NCBI GenBank assembly: GCA_016699145.1
Contig: CP064962.1
Coordinates: forward strand, 600,001-632,000
Length of the DNA: 32,000 nucleotides
Origin: Candidatus Saccharimonadota bacterium
GTDB taxonomy: Bacteria > Patescibacteriota > Gracilibacteria > UBA1369 > 2-02-FULL-48-14
Direction of reading: 5' to 3'
The notes under the pieces are model-generated. The model had not been told where the DNA came from. It made no database searches and saw nothing but the letters and a program-made list of their open reading frames with translations. Positions 5,810-19,627 of this stretch are shown piece by piece. A program made the translations under genes and the position numbers. Position 1 is the stretch's first letter; each line of letters starts with the position of its first letter.

Positions 5810-7090
5810 TCACAGCCGCGTCCCTTTAAAAGCTCCGCGCAATTTTCCATTTTCCACCACCACTTGTCCATGGACCATCGTGAGCACGGGCCAGCCTTTC
5901 AAGTCGAAAAATTCATAAGGAGTCCAGGCGCACTTGGAATGGATATTTTTGGCCTCAATCGTCTGCTTTAAATGCATGTCCACTAAGACAAGATCCGCGT
6001 CCATTCCAACCGCCAAAGAGCCCTTATTTTTGAGGTCAAAAATCTGAGCCGGACCTTCACACATCAGAGCCACCACCCGTTCCAAACTCAAGCGCCCTTC
6101 ATTCACGGCATTGAGCAATAAGGGCAAAGCAAATTCCACGCCCGGAACGCCCGCAGGAGCCGCCCAAAGTTCTTGCTCCTTTTCTTCTCGGGTATGAGGT
6201 GCATGATCGGTAGCAATGCAGGTCACTGTGCCATCCAAAAGAGCTCGCCATAGCGCTTCCACATCCATAAAAGTACGTAGCGGAGGGTTCATTTTTAAAA
6301 ACGCGTCTTCCATGTCTTCCATGGTGAAAAACAAATGATGCGGAGCCACTTCGCAGCTCAATTTGGGGTGTTTGTAAACGCGCAAAAGTTCCAGTTCAGC
6401 CTTGCTGCTGAGGTGAGCAATGTGCAAGCGATTTCCAATTTTTTTACGAAGTTCCAAGGCCAATTCCACCGCCTCGCGAGCACATTCCGAAGACCGCACA
6501 CGACAATAATCTGAGGGCTCTTCGCCCTTTCTTCCCATGTTTCTTTGAATGCAAGCCTCGTGCTCTGCATGCACCACCACCGGAATGTCTTTTGCCTTGG
6601 CGATTTTAAAAACCTCTTCCCAATATTCAGGTTCTTCCAAAAGCAAATCCCCCGTAGAACTGGCCATGTACAGTTTAATCGCAACCATCCCCTTCATGGC
6701 TTTGAGCGCCGCAAGGTCCTTACTGGCCCCGGCATAAAAACCATAATTCACATGGCTACGCCCTTGAATGCCCTTCGCCTTTTCATCCAAAGCTTTTTGG
6801 GTGAGCGTAGCAGGGGAAGTATTGGGCATGTCCAAAACGGTAGTCACTCCACCGAATGCTGCGGCTAAACTGCCACTCTCAAAATCTTCCTTATGAGTGC
6901 CTCCGGGGTCTCGAAAATGCACATGCGGATCAATCACTCCTGGGAGTAAAAATTTTCCTTCACAGTCCAAAATACGATCCGCCTCTTTTTCAGAAAAAGC
7001 GTCCACAATTTTCCCATCCGCCACAAACAAATCCCTGACTTTGATGTTTCGCGACGTGACCACCGATGCCGATTTAAAAATGAGTTTCAT
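5810..7090 (-). CDS. pyrC: Dihydroorotase
   Basis: 426 aa. Metal-binding motif DPHVHFRDPG and the segment ATDHAPH are present. It overlaps the pyrB stop by 4 nt. Confidence 0.92.
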   Translation of the reverse strand: MKLIFKSASVVTSRNIKVRDLFVADGKIVDAFSEKEADRILDCEGKFLLPGVIDPHVHFRDPGGTHKEDFESGSLAAAFGGVTTVLDMPNTSPATLTQKALDEKAKGIQGRSHVNYGFYAGASKDLAALKAMKGMVAIKLYMASSTGDLLLEEPEYWEEVFKIAKAKDIPVVVHAEHEACIQRNMGRKGEEPSDYCRVRSSECAREAVELALELRKKIGNRLHIAHLSSKAELELLRVYKHPKLSCEVAPHHLFFTMEDMEDAFLKMNPPLRTFMDVEALWRALLDGTVTCIATDHAPHTREEKEQELWAAPAGVPGVEFALPLLLNAVNEGRLSLERVVALMCEGPAQIFDLKNKGSLAVGMDADLVLVDMHLKQTIEAKNIHSKCAWTPYEFFDLKGWPVLTMVHGQVVVENGKLRGAFKGTRL

Positions 7091-8004
7091 AACCCTAGGA
7101 AATGAGCCAAAAGAGCCATGCGAACAGCCACGCCATTTTCAACTTGCTCAAAATATTTGGCGCGCGGATCACTGTCCACGGCAGGATCAATATGATTCAC
7201 TCGCGGCAAAGGATCGATCACAATCATGTCTTTTTTAGCCTTGGCCATGAGCGCGGGCGTCAAAACATAAATCCCATTGTACTTTTGGTACTCCGCCTCA
7301 CTTTCAAAGCGTTCCTGTTGAATGCGCGTATCCGAAAGCACATCGCAAATCGCAATAGCAGCCTCCAAATCTTCTGTTTCAGTGACTTCAAACCCTTTAG
7401 TCTTCAATTTTTCCACAAGTTCCGCCGGCATTTTCAAAGCTTCTGGCGAAACCAGGATGAATTTCACTCCTTCAAAATGCAGCAAATACTCACATTGTGA
7501 GTGCACCACTCGGCTGTTTTTTAAATCTCCAACCATGGCAATGGTGAATGTGTCTAGACGGCCCAAGGCTTTTTGAATGGTGAAAATGTCCAAAAGCCCC
7601 TGTGTGGGATGATCCCCCGCCCCATCACCTCCATTGATCACAGGCACCGAACTGCCCTTGGCCAGTTCCGCGACACTGCCCTTCGTGGGGTGCCGCATCG
7701 CAATGACGTCTGCAAAAGTGGAGATCATTTTGCCGGTGTCGTATAAACTCTCGCCTTTTTTAGCCGAGGAAGTGCTGGTCATATCCGCATTCGAAATCAC
7801 GTGACCGCCCAAACGCAGCATGGCCGTTTCAAAAGAAAAACGGGTGCGCGTAGAAGCTTCATAAAACAGCGTGGCCAAAATTTTTCCTTCCGCCAAAGGG
7901 AGGCGTTTGCGCTCTCGAACGATTGGCAAAAATTCCGCCGCTCGCGAAAGCAAAGCAAGAATCTGTTCACGGCTGAGATCCTGAGAAGAAAGAAGGTGTT
8001 GCAC
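7087..8004 (-). CDS. pyrB: Aspartate carbamoyltransferase catalytic subunit
   Basis: 305 aa. Motifs seen: STRTRFSFE, HPTQ, DPLPRV. It has a GTG start. Confidence 0.93.
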   Translation of the reverse strand: MQHLLSSQDLSREQILALLSRAAEFLPIVRERKRLPLAEGKILATLFYEASTRTRFSFETAMLRLGGHVISNADMTSTSSAKKGESLYDTGKMISTFADVIAMRHPTKGSVAELAKGSSVPVINGGDGAGDHPTQGLLDIFTIQKALGRLDTFTIAMVGDLKNSRVVHSQCEYLLHFEGVKFILVSPEALKMPAELVEKLKTKGFEVTETEDLEAAIAICDVLSDTRIQQERFESEAEYQKYNGIYVLTPALMAKAKKDMIVIDPLPRVNHIDPAVDSDPRAKYFEQVENGVAVRMALLAHFLGL

Positions 8005-8085: not shown

Positions 8086-8898
8086 TTAAAGTGGACTTCG
8101 AATCCTGTTTAAACTGGTCTGACTCACCTGGGTGTACCGTTGCGTAGTGCGAATGTTGCTGTGCCCAAGCAAAGTTTGTACATAACGCACATCCACCCCA
8201 TTCTCCAGACAGTGTGTGGCAAAACTGTGCCGCAGTGAATGAAAACTTGCCATCTTTTGAATTCCCGTTCTCCGCAACGCCTGTTTAAACACTTTTTGTG
8301 CCGTACGCACCGTGAGTTTTCCGCCTCTTTCACTTTCAAAAAGAATTCCAAACCCAGCCATCCCATTCACCGAAACTCTTAACTCACTCAACAACTTTTC
8401 CGGTAAAAGTGTGATCCGATCTTTTCCACCTTTCCCCTCCCGAACCATAATCAAGTTTCGACTCAAATCAATATCCTCAGCTCTCAAATTCACCACCTCA
8501 CTCACTCGCAAACCTGCTCCATATGCCAATGCCAATAAGAGTCGATGCTTTTTATTCAAGATTCCATCCAAAATCCTCTGAATCTCCTCACGTGAAAGCA
8601 CCACCGGCAACCGGAAGTTTCTTCGTGCGAACCGTAGTTCAATCTTTCCATGGTAACCCACCACCACCTTATAGAAAAACTTCACTGCATTCAAATAAAG
8701 ATTCACTGTTTCAGGTGCCGCCCCATTGTCCAATTTCCCAAGAAGAAAATCCTTCAAATGCTCCTCTTCAAAATCAAGGTTCCCCTTCCCTCTAAGATAT
8801 AGCTCCACACAGCGCACATAATTCTGGTTCGTTTTAGGGCTATAATGCCTGAGCCGTAACTCACGCCTCATTTTTTCCAGGCCAGTTTGCATGTCCAC
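8086..8898 (-). CDS. intI: Integron-integrase-like tyrosine recombinase (short, XerC/D-sized)
   Basis: 270 aa. The N-terminal SAM-like domain reads LRLRHYSPKTNQNYVRCVELYL. Catalytic elements seen: GLRVSEV, GKGGKDR, HSLRHSFATH, LLGHSNIRTTQRYTQV. IntI-like features include LPVVLSREEIQRIL and a C-terminal IRSPL. It is divergent from the cassette array. Confidence 0.85.
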   Translation of the reverse strand: MDMQTGLEKMRRELRLRHYSPKTNQNYVRCVELYLRGKGNLDFEEEHLKDFLLGKLDNGAAPETVNLYLNAVKFFYKVVVGYHGKIELRFARRNFRLPVVLSREEIQRILDGILNKKHRLLLALAYGAGLRVSEVVNLRAEDIDLSRNLIMVREGKGGKDRITLLPEKLLSELRVSVNGMAGFGILFESERGGKLTVRTAQKVFKQALRRTGIQKMASFHSLRHSFATHCLENGVDVRYVQTLLGHSNIRTTQRYTQVSQTSLNRIRSPL

Positions 8899-9039
8899 AT
8901 TAAGAGGTTTTTAAATTAAGTCTCTTAATAGTAACAAGTTTTTTCTGACAAATCCCTGAATTCTTTTCGGAGTTTTGCACAATGCCTTCAGCACAACTCG
9001 TTTCTATTCCAGCTTCCACAAAATTCGCATATACTCCAA

Positions 9040-9085
9040 TTACTGACTTCTATACGAAAATACTTCGTTTAGAAACGAGTTGTAC
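9040..9085 (+). other. Putative attI region with GTTGTAC core (9079-9085)
   Basis: GTTGTAC is preceded by the small palindrome CGTTT-AG-AAACG. The direct repeat TACGAAAA(T)A occurs at ~9053 and ~9083. The same GTTGTACGAAA(A)ATAAA string recurs at the start of another cassette (17164). Confidence 0.5.
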
Positions 9086-9129
9086 GAAAAATAAAAATTT
9101 GATATAATGAAGTGATTTATTATATCAAA
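9080..9129 (+). promoter_or_regulatory. Near-consensus promoter plus an 11-bp perfect inverted repeat upstream of cassette 1
   Basis: TTGTAC (9080-9085), a 17-nt spacer, then the extended -10 TGATATAAT (9100-9108). The inverted repeat TTTGATATAAT (9098-9108) / ATTATATCAAA (9119-9129) spans the -10 box. The ATG is at 9139. Confidence 0.5.
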
Positions 9130-9138
9130 TAAATAATT

Positions 9139-9387
9139 ATGGAAAATCCATCTTTGCCTAATCTTCAAGAATTAGTCCCTACTCTCAAACCAGCAAAGGG
9201 ATATGAATCTTTGTATGCAAAACAAAATCCACGCCTTACCGTCTTAGGGTGTTTTGAATGGGACGATGCATCTGTCAAACTAGCTGTGAGTAAATTAAAG
9301 GACTGGGGATATACCGCCATAACTGAACCTGTCGGAGGCATTGGAAAGGAGCAACAAGATGCAAAAGCTTTCTTTATTTTAGTATAA
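9139..9387 (+). CDS. Cassette 1: hypothetical 82-aa protein
   Basis: ORF followed 14 nt later by attC1. AT-rich. I recognise no family. Confidence 0.6.
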   Translation: MENPSLPNLQELVPTLKPAKGYESLYAKQNPRLTVLGCFEWDDASVKLAVSKLKDWGYTAITEPVGGIGKEQQDAKAFFILV

Positions 9388-9400
9388 ATTTTTCTTCATC

Positions 9401-9525
9401 GTACAACACTGCGTATGCGGCTACAGCTTGCTCCGTTCCGCCGCAAGCTTCCGCCCATATTGAGCGGATGTAGCCTGTCGGCTATTATACACCCGCGCAA
9501 CATCGCATACGCAGGAACGTTATAT
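9401..9525 (+). repeat. attC-like site 1 (125 bp)
   Basis: GTACAAC-ACTGCGTATGCG ... CGCATACGCAG-GAAC-GTTATAT. L''/L' are complementary at 11/12 positions. Nested inner stems are GGCTACA/TGTAGCC and AGCTTGC/GCAAGCT. Confidence 0.8.
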
Positions 9526-9601
9526 GAAATTTTAAAGTTTTTTAAAGAATACAATCATTATGAGTATTTACAAATCTAAACCAGCTATAGTAGGAGATAA
9601 T

Positions 9602-10145
9602 ATGAACCTCCCCGAGCTTACGCTCGGGGTTTCAGCCTAGTTCAAGCTGCGCTTGGCCCGCATCTTCTTCGCCCTGTTGTTGGATATACTTTCGAATGAC
9701 CTCCTCGTTAATCCCAACTGTGGAGGCAAAGTAACCTGCCGACCAAATACTTCTCGTCCCCAGTACACTTTTCTAAGAAACGGAAACTTTATGTTCAACT
9801 CACGAGCTGTGTTGGCTTTTATTATTCTCACCACCTCTCCCACTGCTATTTGTGGAGGTATGGAAATTAAAATATGTACATGGTCTAAATCCGTGTTTAC
9901 CTCTTTCACCACCAGTTCCGGATAGTACTTCGGAATATCCTTCATCACTTCCTGCAGAAAAGCCAACACACCTTCGTTGAATATCTTCCGACGGTATTTG
10001 GTCGGCCAAACTAAGTGATAGTCACAGATGAAAACTGCGTGTGAGCTTTTTCGTAGCTTCTTCATGCCTCCACTTTACACCACCACGAAGATGCGGGCAC
10101 CCACTACATCCCTCGGGCTTACGCCCGGGGAACTACGTCAGTTGA
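9602..10145 (-). mobile_element. IS200/IS605-family element (tnpA only)
   Basis: Subterminal hairpins CCCCGAGC-TTAC-GCTCGGGG (about 9610-9629) and CCCTCGGGC-TTAC-GCCCGGGG (about 10111-10131) flank tnpA. The left-end junction follows TCTAA on the minus strand. The right-end limit is approximate. Confidence 0.7.
9632..10065 (-). pseudogene. tnpA: IS200/IS605 Y1 (HUH) transposase TnpA, frameshifted
   Basis: The N-terminal frame carries YHLVWPTKYRRK and the HUH motif DHVHILIS. The canonical C-terminus IWSAGYFASTVGINEEVIRKYIQQQGEEDAGQAQLELG* is in another frame, with its stop at 9632-9634. The shift lies near the C4/G4 run at 9758-9761. Confidence 0.8.
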
Positions 10146-10421
10146 TTAGATGAATCTTTTATAATTGGTACTAAAGAAGAATTGCAAGAATTTGCACAAT
10201 TAATTTTAGATTTCATAAATAATCCAAAAGAAGAGAGACTTGGAGATCGGGAAGTATATTCAAGTGCAACTATGCTAACAGATTCTTTATGTGATGTATG
10301 CATCGACGGTATAGTTATGACTAAGTCAGAAAAAGATAAAGAAAATATTGTCAATGATTATCATAGAAATAATAAAATACGGGAAATAGATTGGCAAAAG
10401 CGGAAAAAACTTTAAAAAATC

Positions 10422-10563
10422 ACATAACAGTGTTTAGGCGGTTTGCAGTTTTTACCTATTTGAGGTTAAATTAAGGTACGTAAAAACCGCTCTCCCAAAT
10501 TTTGCACTGGTAGCCTTCGGCATTATACCAGCACAAAACTTCGCCCAAACACGAACGTTAGGT
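10422..10563 (+). repeat. attC-like site 2 (142 bp)
   Basis: ACATAAC-AGTGTTTAGGCG ... CGCCCAAACACG-AAC-GTTAGGT. L''/L' are complementary at 10/12 positions. Confidence 0.8.
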
Positions 10564-10964
10564 GTAATGCTTTGAGAATTAATTCAAATGACTATGGAAA
10601 CAATAACTGAAAAATTGAAGAAAAAAATTTTGGAAAAAGGTGATGAAGAAATATCACTCGAAGTGAATCTCGATACCCCTTCCCTACTCGTTCTTAACGA
10701 GGCTCCATACTATTCCTTAAAGTTAGGTGATTCTTACATTCATCTAGAGTGTTTCTGGCGTGCAGTTGTAAATTCAAAAATTGTTTTTACTTCAGAAGAT
10801 GATAAACAGATGTTCGGATTGGACAAACCGTTTGATCTTATCGAAGCATTCCAAAAATTTTTTTCTTCAAAACGTGTGTCGTTGATCAAAATAAAGCATC
10901 CCATCGCTGATCTTCAAATTATCTTCGAGGACGGAAGTTATATCGAAGCTTTTGCTAGGAGCTG

Positions 10965-11411
10965 TTAACATAAGACTTTGAGTAAAAGTGCCACAAGGCA
11001 GAGGGAGATAAAGGAGGCATACATCAGGTCTAATTTGTCATAGCGAGTTGAAATTCTTCTGTGATTTTTCATTCGGTGAAATAGGCGTTCAATCTCGTTG
11101 CGGTAGGCATAAATGTTCTTGTTGTATTCCCACGGAAATTTCATTTTTGCCTTTGGAGGAACGACTGGAGTTATGCCTTTTTCTTTGCACAGCTCCAGAA
11201 CTTTGTAGCATGAATAACCTTTGTCCATAGCCAAATGATCTACTGTTTTTGGAAACGAATAATCTCTCAAAATTTGTTTTCCAACTTTCACATCGCTCAC
11301 TTCACCACCTGTTAAAACAAAGTGCATCCCATGATCTGGATCTCCAGCAATCATGTGAATTTTTGTAGTGTACCCACCTCTACTTCGGCCTAACGCTTGT
11401 GGCCCCTTTTT
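10965..11411 (-). CDS. IS5-family transposase, DDE frame (orfB), reached by a +1-type shift at A6G4
   Basis: The frame is open from 11411 (KKGPQALGRSRGGYTTKIHMIAGD...MDKGYS...YRNEIERLFHRMKNHRRISTRYDK). The A6G4 run (complement of 11403-11412) lies in the overlap. Removing one A would fuse both frames. Confidence 0.75.
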   Translation of the reverse strand, partial: KKGPQALGRSRGGYTTKIHMIAGDPDHGMHFVLTGGEVSDVKVGKQILRDYSFPKTVDHLAMDKGYSCYKVLELCKEKGITPVVPPKAKMKFPWEYNKNIYAYRNEIERLFHRMKNHRRISTRYDKLDLMYASFISLCLVALLLKVLC

Positions 11412-11742
11412 TCATGGCTCCCGCTGCACTGTGGTGCGCTCTATTTGTTGTACTGTCCAGGAAAGCTATTCGCACTTGAAGTACATCTGCTACTTCAAGT
11501 GCTCTAAGCATTTGTCCAAAAAGTCCAGATTCGCTCCACCGTTTGTATCTTGTATAAATCGTGTGCCAGTCATTCTCTTTTTCTCTGTAATCGTAGGGCA
11601 TTTGTCTCCATGCGCACCCTGTTTTAAGTACATAACAAATGGCATCCATGCAACGTTTCAGTGGAATCTTTTCAGGCTTTCTGGGCTTTGGAAAATAAGG
11701 CTGGATCAGTTTGAACTGTTCATCCGTTAGCATCTGGTACAT
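11380..11742 (-). CDS. IS5-family transposase, N-terminal frame (orfA)
   Basis: LTDEQFKLIQPYFP...ICYVLKTGCAWRQMP...WHTIYTRYKRWSESG...FLDSTTNRAHHSAAGAMKKG matches the IS4/IS5 N-terminal (DUF4096-like) pattern. Confidence 0.8.
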   Translation of the reverse strand: MYQMLTDEQFKLIQPYFPKPRKPEKIPLKRCMDAICYVLKTGCAWRQMPYDYREKENDWHTIYTRYKRWSESGLFGQMLRALEVADVLQVRIAFLDSTTNRAHHSAAGAMKKGATSVRPK

Positions 11743-11899
11743 GGCGTTAGGGTTAGAGTAACTTCACTCTACACCACTCCTCTATTTATGTTAACAGCTC
11801 CTAGTTCAAGTGGATATGAAACTTGGTCAATATCAGGAGAAATTATTTGTCTAGGTGAAGGAAAGCTAGTAATTTCTTAAGACGCACTCAAAGCACAAC

Positions 11900-12076
11900 A
11901 CCTAACAGCGTGTATGCGGTTCAAAAATGTTCCGAATATTAATTTTAAAGGATTAAACATTTTTTCACCCAAATGGCGCAACTCAATGACGGCTCCCCTG
12001 GGTAGACACCTCTGTTTAGCTAAGGTAGTATGCACTGGGGACAGCGCGCCACTTCGCACACACGCGAACGTTAGTG
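11900..12076 (+). repeat. attC-like site 3 (177 bp)
   Basis: ACCTAAC-AGCGTGTATGCG ... CGCACACACGCG-AAC-GTTAGTG. L''/L' are complementary at 10/12 positions. Confidence 0.75.
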
Positions 12077-12111
12077 GCAACCCTATGACGACCATAAAAA
12101 CTAAATAGACA

Positions 12112-12630
12112 ATGAAAGAAATTTTAAAATATACCTTTTGTTTGACTTTGATATTTTTGATTCAGACATCTTGTAATAACAATACGACTCAGGACAGCGG
12201 CAATACTGACAAGGTTAGTAAAGTAAGCCTCATTGAGAAGCCAATCGGAGAAAGCGGTTATGTGTTATCAATTCCGGCTGACTATTCCATTACAACAAGT
12301 GACGGGCCAGACTTCTCGGTTTATTATTTTTCATCCACGGACACGACCATTAAGAACAAATTATCAGGAGGACTTTATTTCGGAAACCATCCAAGTGAAT
12401 TTGAAGCCGACAATGCAAACTGCAAAACAGAAACATTAACAGGAAAAATCCTTGACAATATGCAAGCATGGACTGTTTACAATTGTCAGAGTGACTTTTC
12501 AATTCAAACAATTGTTGACAACAATAAAGGAGAAGGTTGGAATCAGAAAGTTCATGCATTTGGACATGCAAAAAGTAATGACGATTTACAAACAATTTTA
12601 GAAATCTACTCGACATTAAGAAAGAAATGA
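12112..12630 (+). CDS. Cassette 4: secreted protein or possible lipoprotein, 172 aa
   Basis: N-terminal signal segment MKEILKYTFCLTLIFLIQTSC. It is followed by attC4. Confidence 0.65.
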   Translation: MKEILKYTFCLTLIFLIQTSCNNNTTQDSGNTDKVSKVSLIEKPIGESGYVLSIPADYSITTSDGPDFSVYYFSSTDTTIKNKLSGGLYFGNHPSEFEADNANCKTETLTGKILDNMQAWTVYNCQSDFSIQTIVDNNKGEGWNQKVHAFGHAKSNDDLQTILEIYSTLRKK

Positions 12631-12658
12631 CAATAGTATATCGATATAGAAGGGCAGC

Positions 12659-12790
12659 CACTAACACGGGTTTGGCAAAAGTGGCGGTTCAGTGCTCCGC
12701 AAACTCATTTGTGGTTAATCAAAGTTAGGTTCTCCACATCAACATTGGTGGTAAAAATCACCACCTTCGCCAAGCCCGGAACAGTTATGT
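12659..12790 (+). repeat. attC-like site 4 (132 bp)
   Basis: CACTAAC-ACGGGTTTGGCA ... CGCCAAGCCCGG-AACA-GTTATGT. The arms are complementary (GCCAAaCCCG versus GCCAAgCCCG). There is one extra A before the GTT. Confidence 0.7.
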
Positions 12791-12839
12791 GCAATTTTAT
12801 TCGAGTGCAGAATTATCATTAATAAAATCCAGTTGAACC

Positions 12840-13109
12840 ATGGATAAAAACGAAATTCAAAACGATTTCAAAAGCAATTTTCTCCAATTGCGAAAAATAA
12901 TTAATGCATGGAACTTAATTCCTGGATCAGGTAAAGAAGAATTCGATTCGCTCAATCAAAAAATATTGTCAAATTTGTACCGTGGAGCTGATGCTGACAA
13001 AATTAAAAGAGTAATCGAGAGCGAACTGTGCGTAAACTTTGGCTTTTTTATTGATGAATTTGATTCAGAAAAAATGTCGCTTGAAATTATTGAGTGGTGG
13101 AACGAATAA
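12840..13109 (+). CDS. Cassette 5: hypothetical 89-aa protein
   Basis: ORF followed 12 nt later by the 5' half of attC5. Confidence 0.6.
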   Translation: MDKNEIQNDFKSNFLQLRKIINAWNLIPGSGKEEFDSLNQKILSNLYRGADADKIKRVIESELCVNFGFFIDEFDSEKMSLEIIEWWNE

Positions 13110-13149
13110 TGAAAAACTGCACCTAACAGCGCGTTAGCGGCTCGTCCGA

Positions 13150-13178
13150 TTGACTTATTTTTTATTCTTCTTTAATCT
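13150..13178 (+). promoter_or_regulatory. Candidate hicBA promoter
   Basis: TTGACT (13150-13155), a 17-nt spacer, then TAATCT (13173-13178). The -10 box is weak. Confidence 0.3.
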
Positions 13179-13200
13179 GTAAATAGGATAAAAATTGATT

Positions 13201-13419
13201 ATGCGTAAAATAGACTTCAAATCAGTGATTTGGAAAGAAGGTGCGTATTATATCGCCCAATGTTTGGAGGTAGATGTGTCCAGTTTTGGCAAAACAAAAA
13301 AAGAAGCCCTTATTCATCTTCAAGACGCTTTGTCGTTGTATTACGAAGATGTGCCCTTGCCCAAAAAGGCAGAAGTGAATAACCCTATGATCGCATCTAT
13401 AGAACTTCAGTATGCCTAG
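13201..13419 (+). CDS. hicB: HicB-family antitoxin (short form, N-terminal domain only)
   Basis: 72 aa from ATG 13201. The segment VIWKEGAYYIAQCLEVDVSSFGKTKKEALIHLQDALSLYYED fits the HicB/UPF0150 fold pattern. It overlaps hicA by 8 nt. Confidence 0.7.
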   Translation: MRKIDFKSVIWKEGAYYIAQCLEVDVSSFGKTKKEALIHLQDALSLYYEDVPLPKKAEVNNPMIASIELQYA

Positions 13420-13591
13420 GCCCTATAAAGTAAGTCTGATTGTGAAGATTTTGAAAGATATGGGCTTTTTTTTTGTGTCTCAATCGGGTTCTCACGCAAA
13501 ATACCGTAAACCTGGAAATCCAACCCTAACAACCATAGTACCAATACATGAAAAAGAAGTCCGTTACGGCACCTTTCGGTCTATTTTATGA
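13412..13591 (+). CDS. hicA: HicA-family mRNA-interferase toxin (59 aa, not listed in the ORF track)
   Basis: My translation is MPRPYKVSLIVKILKDMGFFFVSQSGSHAKYRKPGNPTLTTIVPIHEKEVRYGTFRSIL*. It carries the HicA signature GSH..Y ... VP.H ... GT..SIL. Confidence 0.75.
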   Translation: MPRPYKVSLIVKILKDMGFFFVSQSGSHAKYRKPGNPTLTTIVPIHEKEVRYGTFRSIL

Positions 13592-13755
13592 CAGTCAAAT
13601 TTAAAAGAAAGTGACTTCAATAAACATAAAAAATAAGCCACTCGAAACTCGCTCAAATTGGCTAGGTGTCCACTTCGTGATATTTTACACCTGTGCAACT
13701 TCGCGCCAACGCGCGGACGTTAAGCGAAATATTTTTTGCCTCTAATATCAAAACT

Positions 13756-14229
13756 GTGAACGAAAATTCAACATCATTAACATTTTATCCAAGCAAGTGG
13801 AAAACTTTTCTTCTTTTTTTTGTATCACTTTTTTTCACTCTGGGAGGCACTTGGATGATAAGTGATAGAGAGCCTATGGGATGGTTCGTATCAATCTTTT
13901 TTGGCATCGGATGCATAGTATTCATCGCAATTTTGCTACCTCATTCTTCTTACTTACGCATTTCCGAAAAAGGATTTGAAATACGTTCATTATTTCGCGG
14001 CGGGTTTACCAATTGGAATGAAGTAGACCAATTTGAATCTGGATACATTGGACTAAATAAAATGGTGGTCTTCAACTATAGCCCAGGGCATAAAAAATAT
14101 GAAACAGGTAAAAAAATAGCAAAAACGATAACAGGTGTTGAAGGGGCATTGCCAGATACCTATGGAAAATCGGCAGAAGAATTAGCAAAATTGCTTAATG
14201 AATGGAAAGAAAAGTTTTCAAGAAAATAG
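13756..14229 (+). CDS. Cassette 6: two-TM membrane protein with a PH-like cytosolic domain (STM3941-like, tentative)
   Basis: The sequence reads ...LTFYPSKWKTFLLFFVSLFFTLGG...WFVSIFFGIGCIVFIAILLP...YLRISEKGFEIRSLF...WNEVDQFE. I chose GTG 13756 because it is the first start inside the cassette. The track start at 13693 lies within attC5. Confidence 0.6.
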   Translation: MNENSTSLTFYPSKWKTFLLFFVSLFFTLGGTWMISDREPMGWFVSIFFGIGCIVFIAILLPHSSYLRISEKGFEIRSLFRGGFTNWNEVDQFESGYIGLNKMVVFNYSPGHKKYETGKKIAKTITGVEGALPDTYGKSAEELAKLLNEWKEKFSRK

Positions 14230-14243
14230 GCAAAGAATACATC

Positions 14244-14364
14244 GTACAACAAGGACTATGCGGTTCATTTCTTCGCTTCGCTCAGTCATTCCCCACATTT
14301 GCCAGTAGTGCGCTTTCAGCGTATTTTACCACTGGCAAATGTCGCATAGTCATGGACGTTAGCT
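14244..14364 (+). repeat. attC-like site 6 (121 bp)
   Basis: GTACAAC-AAGGACTATGCG ... CGCATAGTCATG-GAC-GTTAGCT. The inner stem is CATTTGCCAGT / ACTGGCAAATG. Confidence 0.75.
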
Positions 14365-14447
14365 GAAATACATTTTTCTCTTTTGGCCTACGGCCAACTT
14401 TTTGAGAGGAAAGACATTTGATTTCCTCTATTGACAGGGGTGGTACT

Positions 14448-15382
14448 GTTTTGTAATCAATAGCTTTGCATCACTTCGTTAGGAGTTAGCATGTGAAGAC
14501 CCATGTGAGGACGTTCAAAATTGTAATAGTGAAGGAAGTCAGGGATTGCTTTTTTGTAAGCCTCTAAAGTCTTTGGGACTCGGGAGAGGCATTCCTCCTG
14601 GATGGTTCTGTTGAATCTCTCCACATAGGCATTGTCTGTGGGTGTTCGTACTCTTGAATGTCTGTGCTGAATTTCATTAGCTACAAGCGTTTTAGTGAGC
14701 CACTTGGAAAACTCACTTCCATGGTCTGTCTGGATCATTTTAAGTTCAAAGGGCATGTCTTCTTGTGAGTGCTGAATAAACTCCCAACTTGCGTGGGTTC
14801 CAATCTTCATCACCGGCATAGCAGAGGCCCATCTACTGCACACGTCCAGCATAGTGTATACATAAAGTCTGTCATAATAAGGCCCATCCACAATCGTGTC
14901 TATTTGCACCAATATGCCTGGTTTTTCAGGCCGCGGTCTTTCCTCATACTGGTGCCACTTCTTCCACTTGCTGTATTTGGTCATCTCGTTCCTTTTGAGT
15001 GTTCTCTTCACACTGGAAAGACTCACTTCGTAGCCATCTCTTTCCAGAAAATAGTGAATCACTTCTGCACACCGCTGGTACTTGAGTCTGTACTCTATGA
15101 CTTTCTGCACTGTCTCTGCAGAAAGCTCACTGGGGTGCGAATGGGGACGTGAGCTTTCTGTGGGAATGGTGTGGCCATAGTTATTGCCTCTGAGCTTTTC
15201 CACCCACCGCACAATGCTGCTTTGGTTAAAACCTGTGTGTCTGGCCACTTCGCGTGTGCTCCAGCCTTTTTCCAGAACTAACTTTGCTGCCTCCATTCGC
15301 ACCCGAGGCAGATGGGGATTTTGTGTGTATGCCATGTCCATATCTTTGCACAGGGGTGATGCAAAGCTATTGAACCATTACA
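14448..15382 (-). mobile_element. IS481-like insertion sequence A (935 bp) with a 6-bp target duplication
   Basis: The direct repeat GGTACT occurs at 14442-14447 and 15383-15388. The terminal inverted repeats share a 17-bp perfect core, CAATAGCTTTGCATCAC (14458-14474 / 15356-15372). Confidence 0.85.
14457..15341 (-). CDS. IS481/IS3-type DDE (rve) transposase, intact
   Basis: 294 aa. It has an HTH segment (WSTREVARHTGFNQSSIVRWV) and a DDE triad context (LVQIDT, QTDHGSEF, YVERFNRT). Confidence 0.88.
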   Translation of the reverse strand: MDMAYTQNPHLPRVRMEAAKLVLEKGWSTREVARHTGFNQSSIVRWVEKLRGNNYGHTIPTESSRPHSHPSELSAETVQKVIEYRLKYQRCAEVIHYFLERDGYEVSLSSVKRTLKRNEMTKYSKWKKWHQYEERPRPEKPGILVQIDTIVDGPYYDRLYVYTMLDVCSRWASAMPVMKIGTHASWEFIQHSQEDMPFELKMIQTDHGSEFSKWLTKTLVANEIQHRHSRVRTPTDNAYVERFNRTIQEECLSRVPKTLEAYKKAIPDFLHYYNFERPHMGLHMLTPNEVMQSY

Positions 15383-15426
15383 GGTACTTGCCAAACCTTA
15401 ATTAATCTGCTAATTTAAACAACATT

Positions 15427-15777
15427 ATGAAATGGCTTACAAGAAAAAACGGAATTATATTATGTGCAATTGGGATAGTAATCTTTCTACTTAACTTTCT
15501 AACTTATAGTTTATGGGAAATTGACATTGATATTCTTGGTGCAATGATTTTTTTTCTTGGCTTAGTGATTACAATAGCTTGCGGACCTTCAATGAAAAAT
15601 TCCTCTAAATTGTTAACAAGAAAAAATGGTGTAAGGTTATGCATAATTACCACGGTAATAACAGCATTATTTGCATATTCACCCATCTCATATCTTAACG
15701 GATATTTTACTGGTTTCTTGAATTTAACAGTGTTTGTTTTAGGTGTAATTATTATAACTGTAAGATGGAAATATTAA
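15427..15777 (+). CDS. Cassette 7: 4-TM membrane protein with an internal duplication
   Basis: 116 aa. The two halves both begin (W/L)LTRKNG(I/V).LC and are each followed by two hydrophobic segments. Confidence 0.6.
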   Translation: MKWLTRKNGIILCAIGIVIFLLNFLTYSLWEIDIDILGAMIFFLGLVITIACGPSMKNSSKLLTRKNGVRLCIITTVITALFAYSPISYLNGYFTGFLNLTVFVLGVIIITVRWKY

Positions 15778-15838
15778 AGTTACCGACTCTTAAATATTGT
15801 AGCTTCGCAATTATTGATAAAGGTGAAAATTCTACATC

Positions 15839-15855
15839 GCCTAACACTGCGTATG
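15839..15855 (+). repeat. attC-like site 7, 5' half only
   Basis: GCCTAAC-ACTGCGTATG has the same L'' as attC1 and then diverges. No cognate CATACGCAG-GAAC-GTT occurs downstream. Confidence 0.5.
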
Positions 15856-16007
15856 AATGAATGTTTCCATATTAAAAAAGGTTATTGATAAATAACCCCT
15901 TCTGAGGCTTCCAACGCCATGTTACACCACGTACACGGTTTAACCTTTCGAGGTCCCACCAGCATAGCTAGTGGTTTATGAATTGCTAATTATACCGCCA
16001 AAAAAAA

Positions 16008-17160
16008 CCTCCGGTTCAGGCACGTACGTACGTAGTTTCACGAATTTCAAGTACAGCTCAGGGGAAAAGGAAGAGGGAGTAGAGTAGAGATACTTTACTT
16101 CTTCACCCCAACTCCCTCATGGAACAATATAACATGACGAAAGGCATTCGTGGACTGAGAAGATTACTTCGGCAGTTTAACGAAGCTACTTTAAAGCCCT
16201 GGCAGAGAGACGTACTTAGAGAAAGAATCCTTATTTTGGATTGGTACGACCATAATGGAAAGAATAAAGCCAAGACTGCCAGGGCTTTTGAAACTTCTAG
16301 AAGCCACGTACAAAAGCTGGTGAAGGCCAGAAAGGAAGAAGGACTGGGTGGTCTTATTCCGAAAATAACAGGACCCAATAACAAACGTGGATTTAATCTC
16401 ACCAGTGAAGAGAAACAAGAGATTGAACGCTATGCAAGGATGTTTCCAGATTGGAGCCACAAGAAGCTTCACATGTTTCTTCACCAGCACAGCATTTCCA
16501 CCTTGTACCGCTATTTGGCAGCAAAAGGATTACTGGTTCGTAATCGCTGCCCCGGGTTTCACAAGAAACCAAAACCTAGGTCTGCTTGGAAAGTCCAAAG
16601 AAAAACTCCCCAAGGACTACCAAATCTTAAAACCTGGAGACTTGGTAGTCCTAGATTCCATCGTTGAGTTTGTGGACAGCGCCTTCAACAAACTGTACTT
16701 CATTACCTGTGTGGATGTGGCCACCAGGATAGGTTTTGCACTCGTAACCAAGCACCACAGTTCCAAGGCGGCCAAAGCTTTGCTGGAAAAGATGGAAGAA
16801 GTGCTCCAGACCAAGATTAAAGCTGTTTTAACAGACAACGGCAGTGAGTTCCTGGCGTACTTCCATAAAGCCTGCCAGCAGCAAGGGATTGAGCACTTCT
16901 TCACTCGCCCCAGAACACCAAAAGATAATGCGATTTGTGAGCGATTCAACCTTACTTTGCAACAACACCTCTACTGGAGAGTGGACTTAACCAGTCCCAT
17001 TTACAAGATTAATGAGGTGCTCGCGGATTGGCTCGTGGAGTATAATTGCCTTCGTCCACATGAATCTCTCAATATGAGACCTCCAGTTGCTCACTACTTT
17101 CATCTATTCTACTCCCCTCGCCCCATCCCCGAGGTGTACTTGAAACTATGGAACCGGACA
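16008..17160 (+). mobile_element. IS481-like insertion sequence B (limits approximate)
   Basis: It has ~50-bp imperfect inverted repeats: left ...CCGGTTC..TAGTTTCA..TTTCAAGTACAGCTCAGGGG..GGGAGTAGAGTAGA, and right complement TGTCCGGTTCCATAGTTTCAAGTACACCTCGGGG..GGGAGTAGAATAGA. I found no clear target duplication. The right end is 3 nt from GTTGTAC (17164-17170). Confidence 0.6.
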
Positions 17161-17178
17161 GTACGTTGTACGAAATAA
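16119..17178 (+). pseudogene. IS481-type DDE transposase split into two frames at an A5 run
   Basis: Frame 1 (16119-16667) carries the HTH N-terminus. Frame 2 carries the DDE domain (VVLDSI, TDNGSEF, ICERFN) and ends at 17178. The frames overlap around the A5 run at 16601-16605. Removing one A gives ...VQRKLPKDYQILKPGD.... Confidence 0.75.
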
Positions 17179-17226
17179 ATAAGCCTGCTAAGCTCCTTCA
17201 CGAGCTTAAATTTTAATCATAAAACA

Positions 17227-17787
17227 ATGAACAAAGCGCTATCAGTGTTAACAATTATTGGGATTAGCACCTCCCTCTTCGCTTGCACAAACATCACCAC
17301 CGAACAACAAAAAGCAATCACTATTGATAATTTCGGCGAAGAAATAATTTTCACACCTTCTGCGGAAGACTGGTGTGGAGAAGATTGCATCATTTATCCA
17401 GAAAATGGGAATATGTACATTCGTGTCCCAGAAAGTGGAAGTGACACATTCTACCCAGAAGGAACTGACAGAAATCTAGAAGATGCGAGCGAAGAGGTCG
17501 GTGAAATAATCAAAGATTACGAAGAGAACTTGGATTCTACACAAAACAATGAAAAACTACATCCTGGCTGCAAATTAACAGTGGAAGAAGCAAAGTTAAA
17601 ATCAGAAGAGTATGCCATTTCAAACAATCAAAACTGGGGGGCGATAGAATCTGTTAGCTATTATGAGCCCCGACAAGAATATCATATAGTCTATCCCACA
17701 CCTGAAGGACAAAGACTGCTTTTGGGAGAAAACGGTACAATAGTAAACTGTATCACTGGAGAAACAAGGATAATGCCCTTGGAATAA
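17227..17787 (+). CDS. Cassette 8: acidic lipoprotein, 186 aa
   Basis: Signal peptide and lipobox MNKALSVLTIIGISTSLFAC. The cassette begins with TTGTACGAAATAAATAA, like cassette 1. Confidence 0.65.
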   Translation: MNKALSVLTIIGISTSLFACTNITTEQQKAITIDNFGEEIIFTPSAEDWCGEDCIIYPENGNMYIRVPESGSDTFYPEGTDRNLEDASEEVGEIIKDYEENLDSTQNNEKLHPGCKLTVEEAKLKSEEYAISNNQNWGAIESVSYYEPRQEYHIVYPTPEGQRLLLGENGTIVNCITGETRIMPLE

Positions 17788-17794
17788 TTGGCAT

Positions 17795-18046
17795 TCCTAA
17801 CCAAGCATAGTTAAGACTAGAGATTTGTTGGAAAGAAAGGTTAAGGAAAGCTGGTCCCACAAAATTTACGCGCTGCGGTGCCGTAGCTCCTCGCGTGCTC
17901 GGGTTCTCCGCGGCATAAGATCGCGGATGACGCGCACACGCGTCACCGTGAGCCGCTACGACCACATTTTTTGACGCAAATCGGCTTTACAGATTGAATA
18001 AATGACACAGGCGTCAAAAAACGTCAGCGTAAAATCCACGTTAAGC
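17795..18046 (+). repeat. Atypical cassette junction: R''-like TCCTAAC, a GC-rich long hairpin, an 11-bp stem, and a terminal GTTAAGC
   Basis: TCCTAAC is at 17795-17801 and GTTAAGG at 17840-17846. ATTTACGCGCTG (~17865) pairs with CAGCGTAAAAT (~18025). An imperfect ~90-nt GC-rich hairpin spans 17874-17965. TTTTTTGACGC (17967-17977) pairs with GCGTCAAAAAA (18011-18021). The R' box GTTAAGC is at 18040-18046. Confidence 0.35.
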
Positions 18047-18076
18047 GAAATATTTTTTGCCTCTAATATCAAAACT

Positions 18077-18549
18077 GTGAACGAAAATTCAACATCATTA
18101 ACATTTTATCCAAGCAAGTGGAAAACTTTTCTTCTTTTTTTTGTATCACTTTTTTTCACTCTGGGAGGCACTTGGATGATAAGTGATAGAGAGCCTATGG
18201 GATGGTTCGTATCAATCTTTTTTGGCATCGGATGCATAGTATTCATCGCAATTTTGCTACCTCATTCTTCTTACTTACGCATTTCCGAAAAAGGATTTGA
18301 AATACGTTCATTATTTCGCGGCGGGTTTACCAATTGGAATGAAGTAGACCAATTTGAATCTGGATACATTGGACTAAATAAAATGGTGGTCTTCAACTAT
18401 AGCCCAGGGCATAAAAAATATGAAACAGGTAAAAAATAGCAAAAACGATAACAGGTGTTGAAGGGGCATTGCCAGATACCTATGGAAAATCGGCAGAAGA
18501 ATTAGCAAAATTGCTTAATGAATGGAAAGAAAAGTTTTCAAGAAAATAG
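18077..18549 (+). pseudogene. Cassette 9: duplicate of cassette 6 with a frameshift (A7 to A6)
   Basis: By eye the sequence is identical to 13719-14229 starting from GTTAAGC (18040), apart from one missing A at 18431-18436 (versus 14110-16). That change gives a premature TAG at 18437-18439. Confidence 0.8.
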
Positions 18550-18563
18550 GCAAAAAATACATC

Positions 18564-18695
18564 GTACAACAATGTACAACAATGACTATGCGGTTCATTT
18601 CTTCGCTTCGCTCAGTCATTCACCCACATTTGCCAGTGGTGCGCTTTCAGCGTATTTTGCCACTGGCAAACATCGCATAGTCACGAACGTTACAT
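18564..18695 (+). repeat. attC-like site 9 (paralog of attC6)
   Basis: GTACAAC-AATG[TACAACAATG]ACTATGCG ... CGCATAGTCACG-AAC-GTTACAT. It has a 10-bp tandem duplication of the R'' region and scattered substitutions relative to attC6. Confidence 0.75.
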
Positions 18696-18725
18696 GTAAT
18701 TTAATTTTTTTTAAGGCTTTGCTAG

Positions 18726-19220
18726 ATGAATATTATTGAAGAGATTAATAAACTGACAGTAATTGGGAGAACCTGCGTATCAGTAATATGCTTTGAAAGA
18801 TTTTGTAACAAATTTAATATATCACATCCTGATATAAAAAATTTCATTCAACATATTTGGAAAGTTACGCAAGTAAATTCAAATACTTGGGTAGAATGGG
18901 AAAGTGGGTTTTATCACCTAACAATTACTGGTCAAGGTGATCCTTATAATGAAGATTTAATTAATTCAATACCAAAAAATTTACTAGAAGATTTTGATAA
19001 ATTTTCTCAATATGTTTTTGAAACAACCGCTTCAACTTGGTATACTAGTGATATTACTGGATCTTCTGAATTTTTAAGGAAAGTATTAGAATTATGTATT
19101 AAATATGATGTTCCATTACCAAAATTAGATTTTTATACAAATCCACCTAATAATATTCATAATGGATGGGGAAAATCTTTAAGTGATGAAGAAGTTAAGA
19201 ATTGGCAATCCACTATTTAA
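18726..19220 (+). CDS. Cassette 10: hypothetical 164-aa protein
   Basis: AT-rich ORF. Its stop codon (TTTAA context) abuts the left end of an IS200-like remnant. No attC follows. Confidence 0.6.
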   Translation: MNIIEEINKLTVIGRTCVSVICFERFCNKFNISHPDIKNFIQHIWKVTQVNSNTWVEWESGFYHLTITGQGDPYNEDLINSIPKNLLEDFDKFSQYVFETTASTWYTSDITGSSEFLRKVLELCIKYDVPLPKLDFYTNPPNNIHNGWGKSLSDEEVKNWQSTI

Positions 19221-19446
19221 TCGGAAGAATTCCCCGCAGCTTGCTGCGCGGGTGTAGGATGGAGGCATGAGCAACCATATCTACAAAAGCCATAACAAGA
19301 GTCTGTTGCTATATCACTTGGTTTGTCCTGTGAAATGTAGGAGGAAGATTTTAACGGAGGAAGTGGAGTACAGTTTAAAGAAGATCTGCGAAGAGATAGG
19401 AGAGCGGTTTGAGTTGCAATTTGTGGAAATAGGTAGTGATGAAAAC
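19221..19446 (+). mobile_element. IS200/IS605-like remnant (left end plus a 5' tnpA fragment)
   Basis: The hairpin CCCCGCAGC-TTGC-TGCGCGGG and the string TGTAG..GGAGGCATG resemble the left end of the 9602-10145 element. The TnpA fragment MSNHIYKSHNKSLLLYHLVCPVKCRRKIL...EIGSDEN stops just before the HUH motif. Confidence 0.7.
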
Positions 19447-19627
19447 CTTGATGCCTTTCAAGTCGAGTTTCATAACCATCAACAACTTTAAAAGCAGGTT
19501 CTCTTTCCATTAAAGCAGCAATGCGCTGCACAAAAAAAGTGACATGCTTACGTACCTCTTTTATAGAGTCCTCCATTTTAGCAATAGCTCTCTCTATTGG
19601 TGATTCAGAAGGTGTATATGAGGACAT
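19447..19627 (-). pseudogene. 5' fragment (~60 codons) of an unknown gene, truncated at the IS200-like remnant
   Basis: MSSYTPSESPIERAIAKMEDSIKEVRKHVTFFVQRIAALMEREPAFKVVDGYE. The rest of the 136-aa track ORF is antisense to the tnpA fragment. Confidence 0.35.

Follow-up and report, generated by a model that had tools for sequence, protein, structure and literature searches.

The 32,000-nucleotide window analyzed here (contig CP064962.1, positions 600,001 to 632,000) contains an integron-like platform headed by a tyrosine recombinase gene, which we refer to as the integrase gene (8086-8898, minus strand, GTG start). NCBI lists the 270-aa product as a tyrosine-type recombinase from a Candidatus Peregrinibacteria bacterium, encoded on a contig of 1.34 Mb. 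Transcription of the gene is directed away from an array of about 10 gene cassettes that extends from 9.08 to 19.2 kb, and the first cassette begins within a short attI-type site (9062-9090, plus strand). The DNA between the integrase gene and carA forms a low-GC island (0.34-0.45, against about 0.49 in the flanks). Within the array are imperfect palindromes of 120-190 nt, and one of about 600 nt, all on the plus strand and all with the same layout: an R'' box ending in AAC, an L'' box, a variable centre, an L' box, and an R' box starting with GTT.

Pfam assigns to the integrase a catalytic Phage_integrase domain (PF00589, 4e-40) and an N-terminal SAM_4 domain (PF13495, 3.3e-11). A previous reading of the locus, made from the sequence alone, had credited the protein with the full R-K-H-R-H-Y catalytic context, and R131, K156/K159, H220, R223, H246, and Y255 are indeed all present and invariant across the family. 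The same reading had put only about 57 residues between the motifs GKGGKDR and HSLRH and had suggested that the additional domain of integron integrases is missing. We count 58 residues between the two motifs (residues 155-161 and 220-224), compared with 100 in the equivalent interval of IntI1 (177-276), and a multiple alignment with IntI1, VchIntIA, and E. coli XerC and XerD traces the difference to the protein rather than to an error in counting. The integrase and its relatives lack both insertions found in IntI: a first of about 32 aa, which holds ALERKYP and the I2 helix, and a second of about 11 aa (QHTHSTDPRSG). The additional domain has been described as a defining characteristic of IntI and as necessary for recombination (PMC9668308; PMC7790495), and a role in single-strand recombination has been attributed to the I2 domain together with the extrahelical bases of attC (PMC7790495).

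The absence of this segment is borne out by three further lines of analysis. A hidden Markov model (HMM) of IntI1 residues 186-250, built from 46 IntIs and emulating the intI_Cterm criterion of IntegronFinder, scored 87-138 bits on 42 of 42 held-out IntIs and at most 0.3 bits on the integrase and 120 relatives. The segment is thereby absent from all 121 family members tested, and it was found in none of the 149 representatives of the nearest neighbors examined. In the alignment with the solved structure of VchIntIA (2a3v), integrase residues 10-175 match residues 9-179 and residues 199-270 match 246-317, and VchIntIA residues 180-245 are skipped, leaving the integrase short by about 43 residues. 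Similarly, the AlphaFold2 model of the integrase (predicted local distance difference test score, 88) places only short strands between the helices at 167-177 and 197-211, with no helix at the I2 position.

In overall sequence, the integrase is about as close to archaeal XerA as it is to IntI. Among solved structures, XerA (4a8e) scores 148.9 bits in one stretch and VchIntIA 141.2 bits in two, and XerD is much more distant than either. Foldseek places the structural model closest to VchIntIA (1.6e-16), then to XerA (1e-14 to 1e-12) and XerD (3e-8). The best NCBIfam model is that of the integron integrases (TIGR02249), which matches at 208.5 bits in two separate stretches and falls short of its cutoff of 265; NF011946 likewise matches in two stretches (148.7 versus a cutoff of 435). 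The cutoffs of the XerA_Arch (197.3 versus 220), XerC (166.7 versus 335), and XerD (158.4 versus 330) models are not reached either. The protein had also been called IntI-like at both ends. This description stands to the extent that E. coli XerC and XerD have neither LPVVLS nor the C-terminal RSPL, but both motifs are common to the wider group of XerA/IntI-like recombinases and are therefore not specific to IntI.

The attI-type site consists of two partially inverted 11-bp arms (left, 9062-9072, ACTTCGTTTAG; right, 9080-9090, TTGTACGAAAA) flanking a centre of 7 bp (9073-9079, AAACGAG). The crossover falls where the centre meets the right arm, between G9079 and T9080 and 180 nt from the integrase start codon. 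The first cassette begins at GTTGTAC (9079), the exact reverse complement of R'' of the first attC-like site. When the attI heptamer is predicted in this way from R'' of the first site, an exact match is found in 18 of 28 arrays, and in 14 of these it lies 61-180 nt from the start codon. Alignment of 20 loci yields the consensus A.TTCG.ATA. / aAACGAG / TTaT.cGAAAT, with a conserved junction. The two arms agree with those of E. coli dif (sequence verified in MG1655) at 6.2/11 and 7.5/11 positions, compared with 2.7 and 3.3 for random 11-mers, and they also resemble each other. Further, the L box of the cassette sites contains the left-arm motif of attI (CGCATA), and the R box with its flank contains the right-arm motif, so that the folded cassette site mimics attI. 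The hairpin departs from attI in the distance between arm motif and cleavage point, which is 2 nt greater on the cleaved strand and 1 nt smaller on the opposite one.

Cassette boundaries in the array lie at G|TT. In each window site, R'' is the reverse complement of the sequence with which the site's cassette opens, namely the previous R' (CGTACAAC with GTTGTACG; at site 3, CACCTAAC with GTTAGGTG; at site 4, CCACTAAC with GTTAGTGG), the pattern expected if cassettes circularize and recombine at G|TT. One cassette is present in two copies (13717-14360 and 18038-18691), with GTT boundaries as the exact limits of the identity between them. Forty sites were used to build a covariance model, which supports seven sites in the window, all on the plus strand and all within the low-GC island. 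The sequence-only reading had taken the repeats for a genuine attC array. In functional terms this fits well, given the G|TT crossover, the circular-cassette signature, and the exact duplication. Structurally the designation has to be amended: the sites are attC-like, not canonical attC.

This distinction is clearest in the geometry of the hairpins. In all seven window sites, the L helix is paired without gaps at 10-11 of 12 positions; allowing a 1-nt bulge adds at most one pair, in two sites. The L'-R' spacer exceeds the R''-L'' spacer by 3-4 nt in every one of them. Three class 1 attC controls, by comparison, pair at 6-9 of 12 positions without gaps, need the classical bulge, and have roughly symmetric spacers. 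With the spacers left free, the 3-nt asymmetry prevails by 71 to 10 upstream of the gene and stands at 12 to 12 downstream. RNAalifold returns an uninterrupted L helix of 12 pairs with compensatory changes in 10 of them, and in the model alignment 107 of 120 sites (68 of 80 outside the training set) have no extra base in either L arm, the 13 exceptions being scattered. The consensus of 85 sites reads ACATC-a.atAAC-A-..G..TATgcGG-tTc ... aAAC-tTCgcAtA..C..-gaAC-GTTat..-gaAAT, in which the R helix is ATTTCxxxxAAC / GTTxxxxGAAAT and the L helix is ..TATGCG / CGCATA... The model finds no match in a class 1 integron. These features suggest sites that lack the extrahelical bases the missing domain would read, and the DNA thus lends direct support to the proposal, already raised as one of two alternatives in the sequence-only reading, that the enzyme may recognize attC in a different way. 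The coupling of an enzyme without the domain to sites of altered geometry recurs in dozens of independent genomes.

Several other features of the sites are conserved. At its inner end the L helix carries a G.T pair on the top strand in 37 of 40 sites (alignment columns 27/150), which corresponds to an A.C mismatch on the bottom strand; conserved flanks that are not complementary to each other (GTTC and AACTT) follow this pair, building in a further difference between the strands. A central motif, TC.CCCA(A/T)ATT, apparently unpaired, sits between two variable inner hairpins (for example at 9455-9466; alignment columns of about 76-88), and the second of these hairpins ends in ATTxTAC. The central motif is common across CPR (candidate phyla radiation) phyla, and to our knowledge classical attC has no such conserved centre. 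Two broader searches of the window were uninformative about the sites. No Rfam family matched in the window, the attC model of IntegronFinder not being part of Rfam, and the motif GAACGTTA alone shows no window-wide enrichment (16 found versus 19 expected) and says little without structural context.

The same arrangement recurs across CPR genomes. More than 7000 proteins match the integrase at E<1e-20, the closest all being of about 270 aa and from CPR lineages, and 2556 proteins of a library of representatives at 50% identity match at E<=1e-30; family members are 55-60% identical across phyla. We examined 80 homologous loci, on contigs from one genome per species, together with 5 loci from close relatives (1.05 Mb in all, both strands). 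In the expected orientation upstream of the gene, a rule-based site scanner gives about 6-fold as many matches per unit length as elsewhere. The covariance model detects 125 sites at E<=0.01 in the 85 loci, at densities of up to 15 per 10 kb, and in a scripted check every one of the 120 sites at E<=1e-4 (from 41 loci and the window) lies upstream of the gene, on the strand opposite to it. At least one site is present in 40 of the 44 loci that have at least 1 kb of upstream DNA.

The loci also bear the marks of cassette exchange. Across 35 comparisons, R'' of a site matches the previous R' at 2.77 of 4 positions and its own R' at 2.06 of 4 (14/35 perfect; p 0.003), the signature of a circular cassette. 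The cassettes (n=72) have a median length of 707 bp, and their open reading frame (ORF) is co-oriented with the site in 62 cases versus 7. Relatives at 67-81% identity share synteny 3' of the gene (comEC ... nth ... yidC-rnpA), and the 5' side consists of an array or a contig end. Of 80 loci, 34 have a contig end within 600 nt on the upstream side of the gene and 2 have one on the downstream side (p 2e-8), as would be expected of arrays that vary between strains, are rich in repeats, and break assemblies. Some of the 80 loci (L001-L080) come from bins labelled Gammaproteobacteria, Pseudomonadales, Bdellovibrionales, Actinomycetota, Margulisiibacteriota, or Micrarchaeota. These labels probably reflect mis-binning or mislabelling of co-assembled metagenome-assembled genomes, with horizontal transfer as the alternative.

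We consider it likely that the platform belongs to a so far undescribed type of sedentary chromosomal integron that is common in CPR/Patescibacteria. The best reading of its enzyme and sites is an integron variant that, as we infer from their sequences, would recognize folded cassette sites without an I2 domain. In layout it resembles sedentary chromosomal integrons such as the superintegron of V. cholerae: the recombinase gene is divergent from attI and is followed by co-oriented single-ORF cassettes that measure about 0.5-1 kb and carry mainly orphan genes, along with a toxin-antitoxin pair. The resemblance extends to the R''-L''...L'-R' palindrome with its invariant AAC/GTT, the R box close to GTTRRRY, the G|TT crossover, the complementarity of R'' to the start of its own cassette, and the identity of the nearest solved structure, VchIntIA. 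In contrast to those integrons, the CPR enzyme has no I2 and remains under the cutoff of the integron-integrase model, and its sites combine the absence of conserved extrahelical bases with a fixed 3-nt spacer asymmetry. The L box is conserved in sequence as CGCATA, matching the left arm of attI, the hairpin has a conserved centre and two inner hairpins, and attI is a symmetric dif-like core. Conversely, the class 1 attC array is unmatched by the model of the CPR sites.

In the mechanism we propose, the recombining form of a cassette would be a folded single strand, whose R and L helices would present the two arm motifs of attI, allowing two recombinase monomers to bind the hairpin as they bind attI. 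Given a crossover at the boundary between right arm and centre, the polarity of tyrosine recombinases would entail cleavage of the bottom strand at AA|C, by the monomer on the R arm. The 3-nt asymmetry (bottom-strand GTTC; about 9 versus 6 nt, compared with 7/7 in attI) plausibly marks the recombinogenic strand and blocks a second strand exchange, and in this way would do the job that extrahelical bases and I2 do in classical integrons. Replication would then resolve the junction, as in classical integrons and in CTX-phage integration, where the phage hairpin restricts XerCD to one exchange.

Several observations weigh against this interpretation. Sequence comparison is the source of everything proposed above on activity, on the single-stranded nature of the substrate, on strand choice, and on what the 3-nt bulge does. 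Folding energies show no consistent preference for the bottom strand. The first sites were chosen by a scanner that required 10 nt of complementarity, and the covariance alignment leans toward its own structure, so the RNAalifold result and the count of sites without bulges both lean somewhat toward the paired structure, and the latter is not fully independent; the scattered single bulges in 13 of 120 sites do show that bulged sites were detectable. The conserved central motif and the two inner hairpins play no role in the proposed mechanism. Finally, a sigma-70 consensus scan for a Pc promoter in 8700-9450 performed no better than on shuffled sequence, although CPR promoters may differ.

A different purpose can be envisaged for the enzyme. 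As the main alternative, it could serve CPR bacteria primarily in resolving chromosome dimers, as a single-recombinase Xer of the XerA, XerS, or XerH kind, in which case attI would be dif, and cassettes behaving like integrative mobile elements exploiting Xer (IMEX) would pile up there. Such a system would largely overlap in mechanism with the integron proposed above and would differ from it in what the enzyme is for and in the identity of attI with dif. The 11-7-11 core of attI with arms like those of E. coli dif is what a resolvase site would look like, the family is very large and well conserved, and several of its members exceed the XerA_Arch cutoff. An ancestor of exactly this kind has been proposed for integrons (PMC7790495), and simple tyrosine recombinases from candidate phyla have been assigned to an Xer-related subgroup, 'Cand', whose members presumably take the place of Xer (PMC8138268); the CPR family is probably this subgroup. 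On the other hand, the window protein itself lies under the XerA cutoff (197 versus 220) as well as those of XerC and XerD. GC skew is negative on both flanks of the platform and the cumulative skew is monotonic, with no extremum at the platform in the 32 kb of this one genome, and attI is therefore not at the replication terminus here. The cluster yidC-rnpA is usually origin-proximal, and in relatives at 67-81% identity the integrase gene lies about 10 kb from it. Arrays in 40 of the 44 assessable loci fit a dedicated platform. We regard dimer resolution as unlikely to be the primary role, though the enzyme may also serve as the Xer of these bacteria.

The CPR system can also be compared with individual Xer systems. 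Like Xer/dif and the elements that use it (IMEX and CTX phage), the CPR system has an Xer-sized enzyme without an extra domain and an 11-7-11 target with dif-like arms. Its cassette hairpin is like that of CTX phage integrating at dif1, in that a folded hairpin mimics a duplex core and a distorted centre could limit the reaction to one strand exchange. Unlike Xer/dif, it comprises one recombinase and not a XerC/XerD pair, the XerC, XerD, and XerA cutoffs are missed, and there is no skew switch at the site in this genome. Its units also differ from phages and plasmids that exploit Xer, being small, promoterless-looking single-gene cassettes in long ordered arrays, with sites that form a conserved, dedicated family. 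With XerA, XerS/difSL, and XerH/difH it shares one simple recombinase of about 270 aa and a core site beside the gene. We know of no report of cassette arrays or hairpin sites for single-recombinase Xer systems or for 'Cand'; the CPR integrase is accompanied by an array in 40 of 44 assessable loci. The pdif modules of Acinetobacter plasmids are small gene modules bounded by dif-like sites and presumed, as here, to be moved by an Xer-type enzyme. Unlike the CPR cassettes, they have duplex pdif sites that are inverted, and they are not known to form a unidirectional array beside a recombinase gene or to have a hairpin site.

The substrate might instead be double-stranded. If sites recombined as duplex DNA at the R' core (L' arm, GAAC, GTT....GAAAT), no folding would be needed and the palindromy would serve another end, such as transcription termination. 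An enzyme without the domain thought to confer single-strand recombination (PMC7790495) would suit such a reaction, and L' and R' read as duplex do place CGCATA-type and TT....GAAAT arms around a short spacer. That spacer, however, would be 9 bp versus 7 bp in attI. R'' should also be dispensable on a duplex, yet it is conserved and follows the sequence at which its cassette starts, and only pairing between R'' and R' in the excised cassette would lead one to expect this. Likewise, the complementarity of L'' and L' is preserved, with compensatory changes in 10 of 12 pairs. There are no terminator-like T-runs in 8700-9450, a stretch that covers the first site only. We consider recombination of the duplex very improbable.

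Decay of a classical integron is more improbable still. Here the integrase would be an inactive IntI that has lost its domain, and the array a relic of the CALIN type (a cluster of attC sites lacking an integron integrase), mobilized, if at all, by a canonical IntI in trans. The window array is full of insertion sequence (IS) elements and includes one truncated site, as a relic might, and deletion of the domain abolishes IntI1 activity according to Messier and Roy 2001 as cited in PMC7790495. Against this, the domain is absent from every one of the 121 family members and 149 nearest representatives, the catalytic residues are invariant in proteins 55-60% identical across phyla, and the geometry of the sites is specific to the family and unlike that of canonical attC. 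The conservation of attI and the sharp cassette signatures in many genomes also speak against decay. Least credible of all is that the adjacency of gene and repeats is coincidental, or that the repeats are another element unrelated to the recombinase (repetitive extragenic palindrome- or miniature inverted-repeat transposable element-like, or IS200/IS605 ends): IS200-like elements with hairpin ends do occur in the array, but 120 of 120 verified sites from 42 sources (41 loci and the window) lie upstream in one orientation, no site is found elsewhere in the 1.05 Mb, a defined attI junction stands beside the gene, and each unit carries one co-oriented ORF.

The origin of the family is less clear than its present-day organization. 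A first neighbor-joining tree with few Xer sequences split the CPR family and IntI from XerA, XerC, and XerD with a bootstrap of 0.99. After N-extended neighbors were added, IntI and Xer were each still monophyletic, with their order ambiguous, and support for grouping the CPR family with IntI fell to 0.02. The sister relationship to IntI, seen in the first tree only, was accordingly withdrawn. A profile search with IntI1 and VchIntIA had returned almost only IntI1-like proteins (74-100% identity), adding little diversity. In the broader tree, also made by neighbor joining, the nearest neighbors of the CPR family are the N-extended proteins. The sequence-only reading had allowed for an ancestral or a reduced integron integrase; the CPR family may be ancestral to IntI, its sister group, a parallel offshoot of XerA-like enzymes, or a reduced IntI, and the trees are ambiguous among these.

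The N-extended relatives (P0272-P0389, for example P0278, P0284, P0300, and P0312) are 41-47% identical to the integrase and carry an N-terminal extension of 70-230 aa with RW....W..P. They lack I2, end in SP[LI]D, and in several cases exceed the XerA_Arch cutoff. In one further relative of 324 aa and 52% identity, P0256, about 40 aa are inserted exactly at the IntI insertion position. This protein was considered as a possible intermediate and rejected, its insertion being unrelated in sequence to the IntI segment; the insertion suggests that this loop tolerates insertions.

Evolutionary intermediates between Xer-like enzymes and IntI are a lack lamented in the field (PMC7790495; PMC9668308). 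We tentatively suggest, while thinking it somewhat more doubtful than probable, that the CPR platforms could represent a living pre-I2 stage of integron evolution: an Xer-like recombinase at a dif-like site beside its own gene, capturing single-stranded hairpin cassettes, with the geometry of the DNA site as the sole determinant of strand choice and of the limitation to one strand exchange. On this view, I2 and the extrahelical bases would have been added later as a refinement. If so, I2 was not the innovation that enabled cassette capture, and surveys that require I2 miss an entire bacterial radiation.

CPR is not mentioned in the IntegronFinder 2.0 survey, and a recent study of a CPR-rich aquifer kept only the integrons that IntegronFinder classed as 'complete'. 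In the full-text literature, a coverage outside which subscription-only papers fall, we came across no account of either integrons or cassette arrays from CPR lineages. New here is an integron-like platform, common among CPR bacteria, with an integrase that lacks I2 and sites that lack the ligand of I2. Cassette capture can apparently be organized in a second, so far undescribed way, with recombination sites altered in precisely the feature that I2 would recognize. If active, the platforms would constitute a natural experiment on strand choice and single-strand exchange without I2, and tools based on intI_Cterm and canonical attC would be blind to the integrons of CPR/Patescibacteria, a large share of bacterial diversity. 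In the tiny genomes of these bacteria, an active cassette pool could be a main route of adaptation, and the compact pair of recombinase and site might find use in DNA engineering.

The contents of the window array, all on the plus strand unless noted, are as follows, the cassette ORFs being mostly orphans. Cassette 1 (9080-9519) contains an ORF of 82 aa without a Pfam match (9139-9387) and is closed by site 1 (9395-9531), which is supported by its fold and geometry and by 97.9 bits in the covariance model. Cassette 2 (9520-10557) has an ORF at 10182-10415 and ends with site 2 (10416-10569, 93.7 bits); it also holds an IS200-like element (9590-10135) with tnpA on the minus strand (9637-10065; Y1_Tnp, 2.5e-23). 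In cassette 3 (10558-12070), closed by site 3 (11894-12082, 54.8 bits), the ORF at 10588-10968 is broken by an IS5-like element with perfect 19-bp inverted repeats (10955-11804). Cassette 4 (12071-12784) encodes a putative lipoprotein without a Pfam match (12112-12630), and its site 4 (12653-12796) was found by the scanner and scores 23.1 bits.

Cassette 5 (12785-13718; ORF 12840-13109) is closed by the unusually long site 5 (13115-13731). The R''/L'' half (from 13121) and the L'/R' half (to 13725) of this site are about 600 nt apart, and the stem continues at 13147-13175/13616-13644. Its 3' half scores 26.9 bits and its 5' half 15.8 bits in the covariance model, and its arms pair at 10/12 positions with 0/3 spacer geometry. 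In the loop lies a toxin-antitoxin pair, HicB-like (13195-13419) and HicA (13412-13591, 2.9e-14). Either the cassette site has swallowed the toxin-antitoxin module or two cassettes have fused.

Cassette 6 (13719-14358; ORF 13693-14229, 178 aa) and its site 6 (14238-14370, 97.1 bits) are followed by a rearranged stretch (14359-18041) in which cassette boundaries are ambiguous. This stretch includes an rve-type IS with perfect 18-bp inverted repeats (14457-15373), a second rve-type IS with a frameshifted transposase (about 16040-17150; inverted repeats 16045-16063/17127-17145), ORFs at 15427-15777 and 17227-17787, and a truncated 5' half of an attC-like site (15833-15893). A possible R' at 17166 (GTTGTACGAAAT), 3' of the second rve-type IS, shows no pairing with the truncated site at 15833. 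The stretch closes with an atypical GC-rich palindromic segment (17838-18041) that has a GTT boundary at its end, is not recognized by the site model, and may represent either a remnant or a cassette site of another type.

The duplicate of cassette 6, also picked out by repeat families, occupies 18042-18701 together with its attC-like site (18568-18701, 98.9 bits). In this second copy, a 1-nt deletion in an A-run cuts the ORF from 178 to 145 aa, and the R'' region contains a short tandem duplication (CGTACAACAATGTACAACAATG). The last recognizable cassette (18690-19450) carries an ORF without a Pfam match (18726-19220) followed by a fragment of an IS200-like transposase gene (about 19230-19450); a terminal attC-like site was looked for after this cassette and not found. 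With four IS (one IS200-like, one IS5-like, and two rve-type) and one IS200-like fragment in about 10 kb, the array appears as an IS sink, in which one IS disrupts a cassette ORF and one truncates a site.

The platform sits in a neighborhood of pyrimidine biosynthesis. To its left, on the minus strand and at a GC content of 0.49, are a dihydroorotase-type amidohydrolase gene (5810-7090) and pyrB, encoding aspartate carbamoyltransferase (7087-8004); to its right is carA, encoding the small chain of carbamoyl-phosphate synthase (20437-21522, plus strand). In the relatives at 67-81% identity the integrase gene adjoins comEC instead (L086, L088, L090, and L091), and either the platform or its surroundings have therefore moved.

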